Source: an uncultured bacterium (GTDB lineage: Bacteria; Planctomycetota; UBA1135; GCA-002686595). From it: a stretch of 64,000 nucleotides of DNA. Location of the stretch: assembly GCA_943787795.1 (NCBI GenBank), contig CALSNU010000004.1, positions 672,001-736,000 of the forward strand, written 5' to 3'. A program made the position numbers. Shown here piece after piece: positions 30,001 to 33,000 of the stretch (positions are counted from its first letter, which is position 1; the number at the start of each line of letters is the position of its first letter).

Positions 30001-33000
30001 GCAGCCGAAACGTCCCTCTCTCGGCCACTCTTCAGTAGAGAGGCTGCCTCCGTACCTGCTCTGAGAACACTATGAAGCTCTCCCTTCTCGCCATCGCGTT
30101 CGCGACCCTGCCCTCCCTGGCCCAGGCTCAGCTGATCCCCGACCGCGCGACGCTAAACGCGATCCTCGGCGGCGGCCAGACCCTCGAGGACTTCGAGGCG
30201 TTCAACGTCGCGGCCACCCAGGCAATGGGCATCGGGGTGATTATTCTCGACGATAGCACTCTCGCAGCTGGCCAAGGTCCCGGCCTCGTGGCACCCGGAG
30301 TCAGCTATGAGTGCGCCAACAACCAGCTGCAGTGGAACGGTGACATGTACTTTGGAATGGGTACCAAGACGTTCCTTGCCTTCGCCAGCGCCGGCGGGCA
30401 ACTCGACTTCCGGTACACGGCCCCCGTCACTGCCATGGGCGTGGACGTGACCAACTTCGAGGGGTTCGGGTTCACCGGACAGGCAACCATCAGGGACGTT
30501 GCCGGTGCGGTGGTGGGTACCGTGCCCTTCACCTTGAACGGCGGTCCCAACGAGCGGGTATTCGTCGGCTGGCAGCATGCCGGCGGGATCGGCCGCGTCG
30601 AGATCCAGAGCCCCGACTTCCCATGGAGCCCCGTGGTGGACGACCACGGCTACGGCGGCGGCGTGGGCCTTGGCACGAACTACTGCGGACCCGCCGCTCC
30701 GAATAGCACTGGCTCGCCTGCAACGATCACCGCGAGCGGTTCGAATAGCGCCGCAGCGAACGACCTCACTCTCACCGCAGGTTCTCTGCCGGCCAACTCG
30801 TTCGGCTACTTCCTGAACTCTCAGACCCAAGACCACGTCGTCAACGCCGGGGGAAGCCAAGGCACCTTGTGCCTGGGCGGCACGGTCGGCCGGCACAACG
30901 TGTCCGTGCTGAATTCGGGGGCGGTCGGAACCTATGCGTTGGCCCTGAACCTCACGGCTTTGCCGCAGCCGACGGCGACGGTAGCCGTCATGGCAGGCGA
31001 GACCTGGAATTTTCAGTCGTGGTACCGCGACGCGAACCCGGGGGTGACGAGCAACTTCACGGACGCCGTGAGCGTGACGTTCCAGTGATGTGGATGGACC
31101 TGTCAACCCTCGTTGACGGACATACCTTGGCACTGTTGAACGTTCGCTCGTAACTGCTGCCTTGAGCGCCCCCGCTTCGGCCTTCAACTTCGATGGTCGA
31201 TGCGGGGGCGCGTTCGTGTTGTCGTGATTTGCTCTACATCTTGAGTCGAGTTGGGTAACGGAGGCCGGCGCGTACGCACGTCTTGGTGACGCTGGTCAGA
31301 CTGATGTGGATGGACCTGTCAACCCTCGTTGACGGACATACCTTGGCACTGTTGAACGTTCGCTCGTAACTGCTGCCTTGAGCGCCCCCGCTTCGGCCTT
31401 CAACTTCGATGGTCGATGCGGGGGCGCGTTCGTGTTGTCGTGATTTGCTCTACATCTTGAGTCGAGTTGGGTAACGGAGGCCGGCGCGTACGCACGTCTT
31501 GGTGACGCTGGTCAGACTGATGTTCGCGCGTCGGGGCGCAGTGCGGGGTTCGCCGTGGAGGGTCCGAGCCCCCACCCCTCGCGCCCGCCCGACCCGAGCC
31601 CCAGCTGCGCTTCGCCTGATCCGCCGCCCCAGGGCCACCGCAGCGCGCCCCGATCGACGCCGACGTCCCTCCCCTGAGAGCGCCGGCTGAACTTCGTGGC
31701 CCGACAGGCCGGCGGCGAGGCCCAGGGTGGGGAGTTTCCCCGCATTACCCGTTGCGAGGCTAGCCATTCTCCCCCACCGTCGATCATAGATCGCTTCAGC
31801 GGCCCCTCCCTGGGCCGGGCCCTCGGCCGGGGCGGGCCATCGCCCCTCCCTCCTGTTCTCCTTCAACCACCCCCACGATCCGCTGCTCCGCCAAGTGGCA
31901 GCTTGGATCGCTTATCCACCTCCACCGTCGAACGATGAGAGGAAACTCGTCGAGGAATCTCGTGCTCGCGATCGCTGCCGTCCTCGTGGCGGCGGTGATC
32001 GCGTCGAGGCTCATGGATACGACACCCCGGGAGGAAGCCGACGGAGCCTCCGTCGACCGTCGCGCGGTCGACACGGTCGCCGATGCTCTCGAACTCGGGC
32101 CGGCGCCAGCTCTTCCGGGACCGTCGCGTTCACCGGACGAAGTCGGCCCACGGCCGACGGACGAGGGGGTCGAGGAAGAGAGCGGGCCCGAGGAGTTGGA
32201 GTCGGACGAGGATCTACCCGAACGGGTCGCTGTCCTGGACAAAGTACGTGCTCACACACAGGGTATGCCGCAGCGAAGCGCCATCGAGCAGGCGCGCGCA
32301 GCGAACGTCCTGCTCACTGCCAGCGTCACCGCGATCCTGGATGCACGCGGTGACTTCACGATCGTCCTTCCGGACTCGGGCGGGGACCGCTTCGACGTCC
32401 CAGCCGGGATGCACTGTCTCCTGAATGGCGATCGGAGGTACACCTTCTCGGTCGACGAGTTCCCGGAGTTCTCCGAGGTCGTCGAGATCCTCAAGGGCCG
32501 AGGAGAGACGGTCGTAGGGATCGACCCGCAGGAAGTCGGCACGTCGCTGGCGCCGACGCTCAAGGATCAGATCGACCTCCGCTTTCAGGAGGCGCGCGGT
32601 CTCGCGTGGACCCTACGCTGACGGTCTTGTTCCTCGGGACGTCGCGGACTCGAGAACGACCGCCCACGATCCGCTGCTCCGCCAAGTGGCAGTTTGGATC
32701 GCTTATCCACGGCTCGAGCGGGCAGGCGACCGACCTAAGCCTAACAGGGGCTCAGGAATCCCTCCCGAGGGTAGCCGCGCACGCGACGCGGAGCACCGGT
32801 CAGATCGCTGTCCCGCCCGACTCGCCCGTGCGGACCCGGACGCACTGCTGCAGCTCGGTGACGAAGATCTTCCCGTCCCCCACCTCGCCCTCTCCACGGC
32901 GAGCCGCCTCGAGGATCGCGTCGATGGTCACCTGGGCGAACTCGTCGTTGCACGCGATGTCGACGCGGATCTTGGGCACGAGCTCGGGCCCCACCTCGAG

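Follow-up and report, generated by a model that had tools for sequence, protein, structure and literature searches.

About one hundred proteins of the Planctomycetota genome analyzed here (G000; 4.71 Mb, rated 85% complete) end in one and the same domain of ~135 residues, referred to below as the type-1 tail. Judging from sequence comparisons and structure prediction, we consider it rather probable that this tail is a C-terminal address tag, for sorting or for surface retention, of a lineage-wide envelope route in a part of Planctomycetota. The tail behaves as known sorting tags do: it is strictly C-terminal, single, and attached to unrelated exported enzymes and adhesins amounting to ~3% of the genes.

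Within the window (the whole stretch of DNA analyzed, 64,000 nt, to which the positions below refer), a type-1 tail terminates an exported protein of 338 aa, whose gene is bracketed by an inverted repeat. The features of this locus are as follows.

30072..31088, + strand: gene of the 338-aa exported tail-bearing protein, stop codon counted in (ORF list and translation)
30072..30128, + strand: predicted Sec signal peptide MKLSLLAIAFATLPSLAQA, with Gln at +1 following A-Q-A (translation and hydrophobic-stretch rule)
30129..30665, + strand: passenger part of ~180 aa belonging to no recognized family (Pfam and NCBIfam scans)
30666..31085, + strand: C-terminal tail domain of the Cys type (type 1), residues 199-338, ending in ...VSVTFQ
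29659..29908, no strand assigned: left arm of the inverted repeat bracketing the gene (repeat search)
31051..31517, no strand assigned: right arm of the inverted repeat (I1-I4, D4), beginning 38 nt within the 3' end of the gene

The signal peptide cleavage site was inferred from the translation rather than from a dedicated predictor. A profile search of the genome ORFs matched the tail at E 2e-53 over profile positions 1-134, ending 1 residue short of the stop. Scans of the whole 338-aa protein returned 0 families in Pfam and 0 in NCBIfam; the preliminary description had claimed no NCBIfam match for the domain by itself. In the inverted repeat, 121 nt of the left arm (I1) are 100% complementary to 31179-31299 and 130 nt (I3) are 92% complementary to 31051-31180. 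The right arm is followed by a 216-nt sequence duplicated exactly in tandem (31086-31301 and 31302-31517). Four further tails or parts of tails were found in the window.

27296..27709, + strand: type-1 tail of a 1,079-aa FG-GAP cargo (ORF C4_696347_699709_+, profile positions 1-134; gene ~24473-27709)
27777..27995, + strand: orphan half-tail ending in VAVTFQ (ORF C4_699687_699995_+, profile positions 72-134)
8225..8638, + strand: divergent type-1 tail ending in SITFTP, on a small Cys-rich protein (E 1.3e-30; gene ~7832-8638)
6689..7108, + strand: divergent type-1 tail ending in GVTFTP, on a small protein containing a collagen-like repeat (E 1.2e-29; ORF 6416-7108)

The passengers of the three complete tails differ: the first matches FG-GAP_2 of Pfam (E 2.7e-41), the Cys-rich protein has a CPCGND motif ahead of its tail, and the last matches Collagen of Pfam (E 1.4e-6). 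The orphan half-tail lies in a different frame, shortly 3' of the FG-GAP cargo gene, and appears to be what is left of a tail that was displaced or duplicated.

For a census of the genome, the 140-aa tail was used as the query in iterated phmmer/hmmsearch searches against 32,539 stop-to-stop ORFs of at least 80 aa. Convergence was reached with 104 ORFs, 100 of which carried a full-length copy (E 3e-59 to 1e-16). Each protein had one copy, and 99 of the 100 ended no more than 5 residues from the stop, in good agreement with the ~98 full copies, nearly all C-terminal, reported previously. Other figures of the preliminary description were reproduced as well: copies occurred on all eight contigs; the typical end was V/I-T-F-Q; the share of genes was 2.8% of 3,528 crudely called genes (2.7% claimed); a crude rule found a hydrophobic N-terminal stretch in 76/99 (75/98 claimed); and two Cys were present in 52 copies, three or more in 41, one in 5, and none in 1 (claimed: two in 55, three or more in 41). 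With 97 members, as opposed to 38 in each of the two next clusters, the type-1 tail is the largest C-terminal sequence family of the genome.

Beyond this genome, the large database yielded 976 longer proteins at E<=1e-5, the same figure as before, and among the matches listed the domain ended no more than 2 residues from the C-terminus in 119 of 120. At E<=1e-3, the type-1 profile matched 17,589 representative clusters, and the cultured strain Poly30 was among the sources of the type-1 relatives. Of the 24 further genomes from the host family, 23 had at least 70 matches each, scoring being capped at 102, and there were up to 737 first-look candidates per genome. Across the phylum, the profile matched 14 of 301 sampled Planctomycetota genomes, those outside the host family having 1-4 copies each; when 12 loci from other families were inspected, the profile found a copy in 11, and the full-length match was C-terminal in all 11.

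These counts bear on an alternative explanation, in which the tail is a plain lectin- or CBM-like binding module that holds its proteins on a common target (a polysaccharide, a prey wall, particles, or the cells' own matrix) and plays no role in sorting. CBMs occur at either end of proteins, internally, and in tandem, and a CBM family typically has far fewer than 70 members per genome. Single copies that are terminal in all but one of the proteins inspected in either set (the 119 of 120 being among the matches listed), and that number at least 70 and possibly as many as 737 per genome, are therefore unlike CBMs.

Type-1 tails are well conserved, with a mean column identity of 51% among paralogs. 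They have conserved Cys at profile columns 2 (85%) and 63 (97%), the invariant polar or aromatic residues R76, F116, Q117, R121, D122, and N130, the motif W-x-F-Q-x-W-x-R-D, and two conserved N-x-S/T motifs. N-glycosylation of the latter was considered and rejected, no STT3/PglB homologue having been found in the genome. The domain is acidic (pI 4.4) and contains almost no lysine (0.26 K per domain). AlphaFold2 predicted nine strands for 21 paralogs with a pLDDT of 94.2 and a pTM of 0.89, close to the 95.2 and 0.90 claimed for 20 paralogs. The confidently predicted model is a generic Ig-like sandwich that cannot be assigned to any particular fold family. Ahead of the tail, neither a linker nor a cleavage motif was found; the conserved G-T-x-Y-C already belongs to the fold, as its first strand.

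A compact, acidic, presumably disulfide-bearing domain with this little lysine (0.26 K, pI 4.4) would suit extracellular stability, and the tail could be conceived of as a structural cap or folding aid, i.e., an intramolecular chaperone or stabilizer of exported proteins that has no partner. However, folding-aid domains are specific to their own enzyme family, whereas one domain here serves dozens of unrelated folds, and the 51% identity maintained next to passengers that are unrelated to one another suggests an external partner common to all; we regard this explanation as very improbable.

Database searches gave the domain no name. The only Pfam match was that of CBM49 at E 0.1, as noted previously, in 1 of 21 copies and at 13.4 bits, below the cut-off of 23.4. 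Nothing meaningful was obtained when 21 type-1 tails, together with 13 and 9 tails of two further kinds described below (types 2 and 3, respectively), were scanned against Pfam, nor when types 2 and 3 were scanned against NCBIfam; type 3 matched no model in either. A profile search of PDB sequences with type 1 gave a best E of 0.51, and only unnamed Planctomycetota clusters were matched in the ESM Atlas. In Foldseek searches of the PDB, type 1 reached a best E of 2.7e-3 (TM 0.37) and type 2 one of 1.7e-3, and a wide VIA-align search gave best Z values of 8.5 and 8.6 (types 1 and 2), within the range called common. The binding-module explanation draws some support here: the Ig-like sandwich has a size common among CBMs, many polar and aromatic residues, including the W-x-F-Q-x-W-x-R-D motif, are invariant, and the one weak match is to a CBM. 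Indeed, a length of 135 residues, the invariant R76, Q117, R121, D122, and N130, and the two N-x-S/T motifs would fit a ligand-binding module equally well and speak against a tag, while the lack of any CAZy-type family match speaks against a binding module.

The cargo proteins are diverse. Pfam identified peptidases (M12, M43, and M14 metalloproteases; S8, trypsin-like, and S9 enzymes), Endonuclease I, GH16, a sulfatase, a SASA esterase, lectins, and FG-GAP propellers; 47 of 99 cargoes had no Pfam family. A cargo of this kind is usual for secretion tags. The presence of GBD_T9SS_assoc in seven cargoes was confirmed over the Pfam cut-off, and five more were found under it. The abundance of hydrolases and lectins is what would be expected of a binding module, but the proteases, the nuclease, and the FG-GAP proteins have no evident common substrate. 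In several cargoes, a motif resembling a calcium loop, D-x-D-x-N-G-x-x-D-x-C-E, stands directly ahead of the tail. Cellulosome-forming bacteria possess many dockerins per genome, located C-terminally, and given these motifs, the ~100 to several hundred tails per genome, their C-terminal position, and conserved surface residues that could make a protein interface, the tail might be a dockerin-like assembly module that docks enzymes on a cohesin-like receptor of a surface scaffold, forming a multi-enzyme complex. Such docking would be a special case of anchoring. We consider it improbable: the tail itself has no duplicated calcium loops, no conserved neighbor of the cargo genes was found, and no scaffold candidate with repeated receptor modules was identified, in searches that did not include a dedicated one for cohesin-like repeats.

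The N-termini of the cargoes lend support to the tag reading. A stricter signal-peptide rule, applied with a control, was passed by 47 of 98 cargoes and by 508 of 3,237 other genes; among those passing, A-x-A-Q stood at the end of the signal peptide in 32 of the 47 cargoes as opposed to 67 of the 508 others. The genome also encodes a glutaminyl cyclase (Glu_cyclase_2, E 2e-89). The Q-rule of Bacteroidetes describes cargo N-termini that expose Gln (PMC5837995, PMC10653852); the cargo N-termini here often do the same, and the A-x-A-Q enrichment, taken with the cyclase gene, seems to echo that rule. Two observations run against the tag reading: depending on the rule used, 10-23 cargoes lack a signal peptide, some of them being fragments or having wrong starts, and one cargo is an Amidase_3 peptidoglycan amidase. 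Peptidoglycan amidases of this type are usually periplasmic.

The preliminary description had also held that the tail is distributed in an all-or-none fashion among sister genera, and that this spread offers a way to the machinery that reads it. The first claim did not hold as worded, and the second failed. Two genera of the host family, G024 and G243, have no match to the type-1 profile; they do carry a homologous tail without the Cys (type 3), and the all-or-none pattern holds only for the narrow type-1 profile. Both genera, like other families of the order, carry the type-3 tail and a further tail family, type 2. Profiles of type 1 (A1) and type 3 (A4) aligned in hhalign with a probability of 94.2% (E 1.1e-7, 123 columns), and three G000 tails match both. 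Type 3 (...Y-x-Q-x-x-V-L-D-P...I-C-P) occurred in 58 of the 301 Planctomycetota genomes sampled, all-or-none by family. It resembles its homologue type 1 in its extreme C-terminal position and in the kinds of cargo, but has neither the Cys pair nor the two N-x-S/T motifs, and its spread is far wider. By profile comparison, type 1 is the version expanded in one family, within a wider type-3 tail superfamily.

Type 2 (A3) stands apart. Its hhalign probability of homology to type 1 was 0.45%, or 0.3% with 354 vs 100 sequences, no tail in G000 cross-matched types 1 and 2, and the probability against type 3 was 16% (E 0.0016); a very remote kinship of types 1 and 2 could still exist, since each was modeled as a generic Ig-like sandwich and their match lists overlap. 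Genomes in which type 1 abounds have 0-5 copies of type 2, G024 has 10, and other families have 1-85. The cultured Engelhardtia mirabilis is among the sources of type-2 relatives, and C25 peptidases (the gingipain/PorU family) of sister lineages bear a type-2 tail. A module of ~230 aa precedes the type-1 tail of a reprolysin cargo in G000 (L037, aa 467-714), and modules 32-35% identical to it precede type 2 in G243 and type 3 in G024. As far as sequence can tell, the tails are interchangeable behind the same pre-tail module across three genera. The swapping of sequence-unrelated tails in this position argues against a binding module. Since homologous type-3 tails and type-2 tails extend beyond the family, any reader is likely shared far beyond it, and machinery should be sought by phylum-wide comparison, not between sister genera.

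Searches for such machinery in the genome gave no candidate. Models of the T9SS parts SprA, PorV, PorU, and SprA_N (TIGR04189, NF033710, NF033707, PF14349) had no match in the genome at E<=1e-3, a negative that is weak for SprA because its models matched in no control genome, and that applies to a genome rated 85% complete; the exosortase model PF09721 likewise had no match in the genome, while its control matched in M. jannaschii. These model searches bear out the earlier statement that neither T9SS nor exosortase components are found. Among ~100 families neighboring cargo genes in G000, none was clearly enriched (best p 0.002, uncorrected); the best was an FG-GAP/ASPIC-like family, 6 of 15 members of which lie near cargo and which is itself secreted. 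Three of four members of a HEAT-like family lie near cargo. The 12 loci from genomes with 1-4 copies had no neighbor in common.

Two candidates were rejected. PF01364 is absent from G000, from 21 of the 24 other family genomes, and from several genomes rich in type 2, and the C25 proteins are therefore cargo, not a PorU-like processor reading the tail. The genome has six secretin genes, and nothing ties these, or a T2SS as the route, to the tails.

That no machinery was found in the genome, and that the out-of-family genomes have few copies and no conserved neighbor, would be natural for a binding module. A preprint reports that a cultured relative forms an extensive extracellular matrix (10.1101/817700), which would offer such a module a target; a term search of that preprint met no mention of "secret", "C-terminal", or "signal peptide". 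Literature searches on Planctomycetes protein sorting and on the genera of this clade yielded no description of such tails. On balance, we judge a binding module without a sorting role unlikely, albeit less so than a cap or a docking module.

The sorting or anchoring tag put forward in the preliminary description is thus upheld in part: single terminal copies, varied exported cargo, tail exchange, and A-x-A-Q speak for it, whereas the genome searches revealed no reader, no processing site or pre-tail cleavage motif, and no conserved neighbor. If the tail is such a tag, cargo would be synthesized with a Sec signal peptide, and cleavage would follow A-x-A, a motif that is seen, often exposing Gln, which the encoded glutaminyl cyclase could convert to pyroglutamate. 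In the periplasm, the tail would fold into the predicted compact, acidic, nine-stranded Ig-like sandwich, presumably locked by a disulfide between the two conserved Cys. A shared envelope component would then recognize the tail once folded, its C-terminal strand (...V-T-F-x) being free, and either move the cargo across the outer membrane or hold it on the surface, and type 2 could stand in place of type 1.

If the tails are address labels, they mark the exported toolkit of a Planctomycetota group that is poorly known and cultured in part, comprising proteases, nucleases, glycanases, and lectins as well as hundreds of proteins without a known family, and they would point to a secretion or anchoring machine missing from current schemes of bacterial secretion. 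The tail profiles can be used directly for annotation; none of the type-1 clusters is in Pfam or NCBIfam. Given that cultured strains (Poly30, Engelhardtia mirabilis) carry tails, the question can be addressed at the bench.

The tail can be compared with three groups of known systems. CBMs and dockerins are, like the tail, small beta-rich (CBM) or C-terminal (dockerin) appendages of many secreted hydrolases; the tail differs in its strict single terminal position, in its occurrence on non-carbohydrate enzymes, and in having no match beyond that to CBM49. The PEP-CTERM/exosortase, LPXTG/sortase, and GlyGly-CTERM/rhombosortase systems also use a lineage-restricted C-terminal signal that is present on many unrelated exports and defines the cargo. 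Their signals are ~25-35 residues long and combine a motif with a membrane helix and a basic tail, unlike the folded, soluble, acidic domain of 135 residues described here, which ends in a beta-strand; the exosortase of the PEP-CTERM system was not found in this genome. There are also parallels with the T9SS CTD of Bacteroidota (Por_Secre_tail; type A, TIGR04183/PF18962; type B, TIGR04131), a terminal Ig-like beta-sandwich, as the tail is predicted to be, on unrelated Sec-exported hydrolases and adhesins, with tens to hundreds of cargoes per genome and more than one tail type. GBD_T9SS_assoc domains among the cargo of this genome, and type-2 tails on C25 peptidases in sister lineages, add to the resemblance. 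In T9SS, PorU removes the tail and the cargo becomes linked to anionic LPS. Solved T9SS CTDs are described as compact 3+4 seven-strand sandwiches (PMC11285876). The tail, in contrast, has ~135 residues and nine predicted strands, as opposed to ~70-90 residues and seven strands, and bears a conserved Cys pair. TIGR04183 and PF18962 did not match the 338-aa protein, Pfam had no T9SS match on 21 tail copies, and the only TIGR04183 match in the genome (21.4 bits) belongs to another protein and lies 37 residues short of its end. SprA, PorV, and PorU were not found in the genome, and the tail model superposed on the PorU C-terminal region (Z 8.1, rmsd 2.7, 99 aligned) no better than on unrelated Ig/FN3 domains, with which that match was tied. 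Tentatively, and with more doubt than attaches to the tag itself, we suggest that a large Planctomycetota clade (~1/5 of the sampled genomes) might possess an outer-membrane export or attachment system new to science, with a cargo of 2-5% of genes, tails of types 1/3 and 2, and Gln-exposing cuts, which would be a convergent counterpart of T9SS built from entirely different parts.

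The target gene encodes a protein that, in translation, begins with a typical signal peptide (MKLSLLAIAFATLPSLAQA, then Q) and ends with a copy of the type-1 tail, a Cys-type domain of about 135–140 residues. When scanned whole, the protein matched no family in Pfam or NCBIfam. The gene and its parts lie in the window as follows.

30072–31088, + strand: target ORF, 338 aa (ORF list and translation)
30072–30131, + strand: signal peptide with the A-x-A-Q motif (translation)
30666–31088, + strand: type-1 tail, the last 140 residues plus stop
about 30702–30710 and 31053–31061, + strand: N-x-S/T motifs of the tail (profile columns 7 and 125)

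For the copy count, 32,539 stop-to-stop ORFs of at least 80 aa from the whole genome under study (G000; 4.71 Mb, 8 contigs, G+C 69.6%), in which the window is C4:672001–736000, were searched by iterated phmmer/hmmsearch with the 140 residues as the query. The search converged after one round with 104 matched ORFs, 100 of which carry a full-length copy; the copy ends within five residues of the stop in 99 of the 100 (mostly exactly one residue before it), never occurs twice in a protein and is present on all eight contigs. These results bear out the preliminary description, which had counted 98 full-length copies, nearly all C-terminal, spread over all contigs and amounting to 2.7% of genes (2.8% of 3,528 crudely called genes here). 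Type 1 is the biggest C-terminal sequence family of the genome, with 97 members versus 38 in each of the two next clusters. The sole non-terminal full copy is in a protein encoded outside the window (C6:243723–244898, − strand), in which a signal peptide and the tail are followed by a 112-aa extension. This extension contains C-x-x-C-H (…PECVICHGS…) and may be a haem-binding domain. The gene of this protein adjoins two HEAT-like paralogs from a family of four, three of which lie beside genes for cargo, the proteins that end in a tail.

The passenger parts are unrelated to one another, as had been claimed. A Pfam survey of all 99 cargo proteins (E ≤ 1e-3) revealed FG-GAP/VCBS propellers (11) and GBD_T9SS_assoc (12, comprising the seven above the Pfam cut-off that were already reported and five below it), together with peptidases of the reprolysin-like M12 (2), M43, M14 (2), S8 (2), trypsin-like (1) and S9/esterase (2) types. 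Other enzymes were Endonuclease I, GH16, a sulfatase, a SASA esterase, GSDH (2) and Amidase_3, and the remaining assignments were a legume-type lectin, C-type lectin (2), LamG (2), LTD and NIDO (2); 47 of the 99 had no Pfam family at this threshold. Database relatives of type 1 have the same cargo mix.

The anatomy of the domain was read from an alignment of 21 copies and the profile of 100. It has a conserved start, [LIV]-G-[TS]-x-[YF]-C, a Cys pair at columns 2 (85%) and 63 (97%), the motifs N-S-T-G, G-S, N-D, L-P, G-x-L-C-L-G-G, I-G-R, G-E-T-W-x-F-Q-x-W-x-R-D and S-N-F-[ST]-D, and a last strand V-T-F-x. The N-x-S/T motifs at columns 7 and 125 are kept in 76% and 91% of the 100 copies; they are missing in the homologous type-3 tails described below. 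With a median pI of 4.4 the domain is acidic, and it is nearly devoid of lysine (0.26 per domain, 100 copies). Copies of the main sub-group end F-[QNEL]; a second sub-group, ending F-C-P, has two additional Cys; and a third, ending T-F-T-P, has a Cys-rich C-P-C-G-N stretch before the tail. Two tails of this third sub-group were found in the window by the type-1 profile, near a gene of another kind.

6689–7108 and 8225–8638, + strand: tails of the C-P-C-G-N/T-F-T-P sub-group
8783–10504, − strand: HTTM plus vitamin-K-dependent gamma-carboxylase lumenal domain gene (E 1.7e-90 and 5e-39)

The latter adjoins two small Cys-rich tail proteins (6416–7108 and 7652–8638), one with a collagen-like repeat.

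The AlphaFold2 model of type 1 has nine strands (pLDDT 94.2, pTM 0.89), a confidence in line with that reported before, and the earlier Cys counts, the 976 longer proteins matched in the database at E ≤ 1e-5 and CBM49 at E 0.1 as the sole Pfam match were likewise reproduced. Foldseek of the model against the PDB gave no match at E ≤ 1e-3. The best score of VIA-align against 48,161 chains was Z 8.5, which the tool itself rates as common; its list comprised generic Ig, FN3 and macroglobulin-type sandwiches, with which the PorU C-terminal region (Z 8.1) was tied. Since all matches are of this generic kind, the predicted fold can be assigned to the Ig-like sandwich class and to nothing more specific.

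The N-terminal ends of the cargo have a signature of their own. By a crude hydrophobicity rule 76 of 99 cargoes have a signal peptide, in agreement with the earlier statement that most have a hydrophobic N-terminal stretch; a lax rule passes 89 of 99 but proves little, because 1,430 of 3,237 other genes also pass. A stricter rule (coding-potential start plus A-x-A) is satisfied by 47 of 98 cargoes versus 508 of 3,237 other genes, and among these signal peptides A-x-A-Q is found in 32 of 47 versus 67 of 508, with cleavage sites inferred from the motif rather than from a dedicated predictor. The genome has a glutaminyl cyclase gene outside the window (Glu_cyclase_2, E 2e-89, C4:270292–271014).

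The 40 relatives compared included 24 genomes from the family of G000, and 23 of these had at least 70 type-1 matches; the scoring stopped at 102 per genome, and candidates at first look numbered up to 737. G024, one genus of the family, had zero, and other families of the order had zero or one weak match. In 301 genomes drawn evenly from the phylum (E ≤ 1e-5), type 1 occurred in 14: G000, six of the seven others of its family, and seven elsewhere with 1–4 copies, some of which may be contamination. A 50%-identity representative library contained 17,589 type-1 clusters when cut at E ≤ 1e-3, of which 2,612 also passed E ≤ 1e-30; the domain stood at the protein end in 150 of 150 representative matches listed. 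Sources named for database relatives of type 1 were Planctomycetota MAGs and one cultured strain.

To learn what replaces type 1 in relatives, we searched for the passenger part of L037, a reprolysin cargo protein of G000, in G024, in G243 (a relative without type-1 matches) and in three others. The matches in G243 and G024 terminate in other domains. Type 2 (...Y-L-x-L-G-S-x-S-G-T-x-P-G...V-P-L-N...S-N-x-V-x-V-x-x-P) is strictly terminal, has a predicted Ig-like sandwich (pLDDT 93.2), and occurs in 0–5 copies in type-1-rich genomes, 10 in G024 and 1–85 in other families of the order, on C25 peptidases, S8, M1, sialidases, FG-GAP proteins and others. In sister lineages (L134 of G243 and relatives), this tail is found on peptidases of the C25 (gingipain/PorU) family that include a C25 propeptide. 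Homology between types 2 and 1 is undetectable by hhalign (probability 0.45% and 0.3%). Type 3 (Y-G-x-G...P-x-L...L-L-V-D-P...P-I-P-x-d-P-x-L-x-G...Y-x-Q-x-x-V-L-D...I-C-P) is homologous to type 1 (probability 94.2%, E 1.1e-7, 123 columns, both domains end to end), and three G000 tails are matched by both profiles. It occurs in 58 of the 301 phylum genomes, many copies each, and is all-or-none by family (e.g., 0/15, 0/15, 0/10 and 0/10 in four large families; 5/5, 6/6 and 4/4 in others). Scans of type-2 and type-3 tails matched no Pfam or NCBIfam model. The proposed all-or-none spread among sister genera therefore holds only for the narrow type-1 profile, because relatives lacking type 1 bear the homologous type 3 and/or type 2, which is not detectably homologous; given this homology of type 3 and its wider spread, type 1 is one branch, expanded locally, of a far larger superfamily.

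The module of about 230 aa that precedes the tail of L037 (aa 467–714) shares 32% identity (E 5e-24) with aa 501–742 of a G243 C25 peptidase, whose type-2 tail begins right after them at residue 743, and 35% identity (E 6e-34) with aa 514–740 of a G024 protein with a type-3 tail. The three proteins are not orthologues, because their catalytic parts differ. One module thus precedes three different tails, a pattern familiar from domains that are combined with one sorting signal or another.

The target gene is located inside a 12-kb stretch (about 22–34 kb) of lower G+C (63–66% vs 69.6%) that contains the following features.

22841–23386: Y2_Tnp transposase fragment (scan of window ORFs)
23819–24274: ISL3 HTH fragment (same scan)
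23020–23699, 28085–28765 and 31564–31931: repeats of ~370–680 bp, 71–99% identical, overlapping the Y2_Tnp fragment
27777–27995, + strand: orphan half-tail (profile positions 72–134, ending VAVTFQ), in another frame directly after the stop of an FG-GAP cargo
29659–29908 and 31051–31517 region: left and right arms of an inverted repeat around the target gene (121 nt 100% and 130 nt 92% complementary)
33165–33605: truncated ammonium-transporter gene (same scan)

Of the right arm, the first 38 nt belong to the 3' end of the target gene, and after it comes an exact 216-nt tandem duplication. A 51-nt element (CCCCCACGATCC...TTATCCAC) has eight copies genome-wide, seven of them within 12 kb (22116–33664; six direct, one inverted), intergenic and 0.8–5 kb apart. 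No integrase-like gene was found among the 27 window ORFs scanned; the same scan identified, at 33687–37394 (− strand), a 1,236-aa protein in which a Ser/Thr protein kinase is joined to WD40 propellers. The half-tail and three further tail fragments elsewhere in G000 look like vestiges of tail duplication or replacement. The features of the stretch suggest recent rearrangement around tail-bearing genes.

Family models detected no SprA, PorV, PorU or SprA_N in G000, which is rated 85% complete (the SprA models matched no control genome either), nor, in the same genome, an exosortase or an STT3/PglB homologue. The sole TIGR04183 match was weak and lay in an unrelated BNR/sortilin-like protein, not at its extreme end. 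A C25 peptidase as a PorU-like candidate was dismissed, being missing from G000 and 21 of the 24 other genomes of the family. Six secretin genes are present. No gene family beside the G000 cargo genes was convincingly enriched, 12 loci from low-copy genomes had no common neighbour, and no linker or cut site before the tail was evident in the alignment of copies.

The earlier reading of type 1 as a sorting or anchoring tag, for export or retention, stands on five features, namely its strictly terminal place with one copy per protein, how many copies a genome has, what the cargo consists of, the exchange of tails and the signature at the other end of the cargo. Such features typify sorting or anchoring tags, not ordinary binding modules, so that we slightly favor a tag, and a binding module is a distinctly less probable function. 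That the tail acts as a dockerin-like plug seems improbable, and a role as a stabilising cap is more improbable still.

We found no description of these Planctomycetota tails in the literature. The nearest known system in logic to a type-1 sorting or anchoring tag is the T9SS C-terminal domain, although membership fails on both the sequence model and the machinery. The enrichment of A-x-A-Q, together with the glutaminyl cyclase gene, is reminiscent of the Q-rule of Bacteroidetes (PMC5837995, PMC10653852), but in G000 the Gln signature is confined to one class of cargo.
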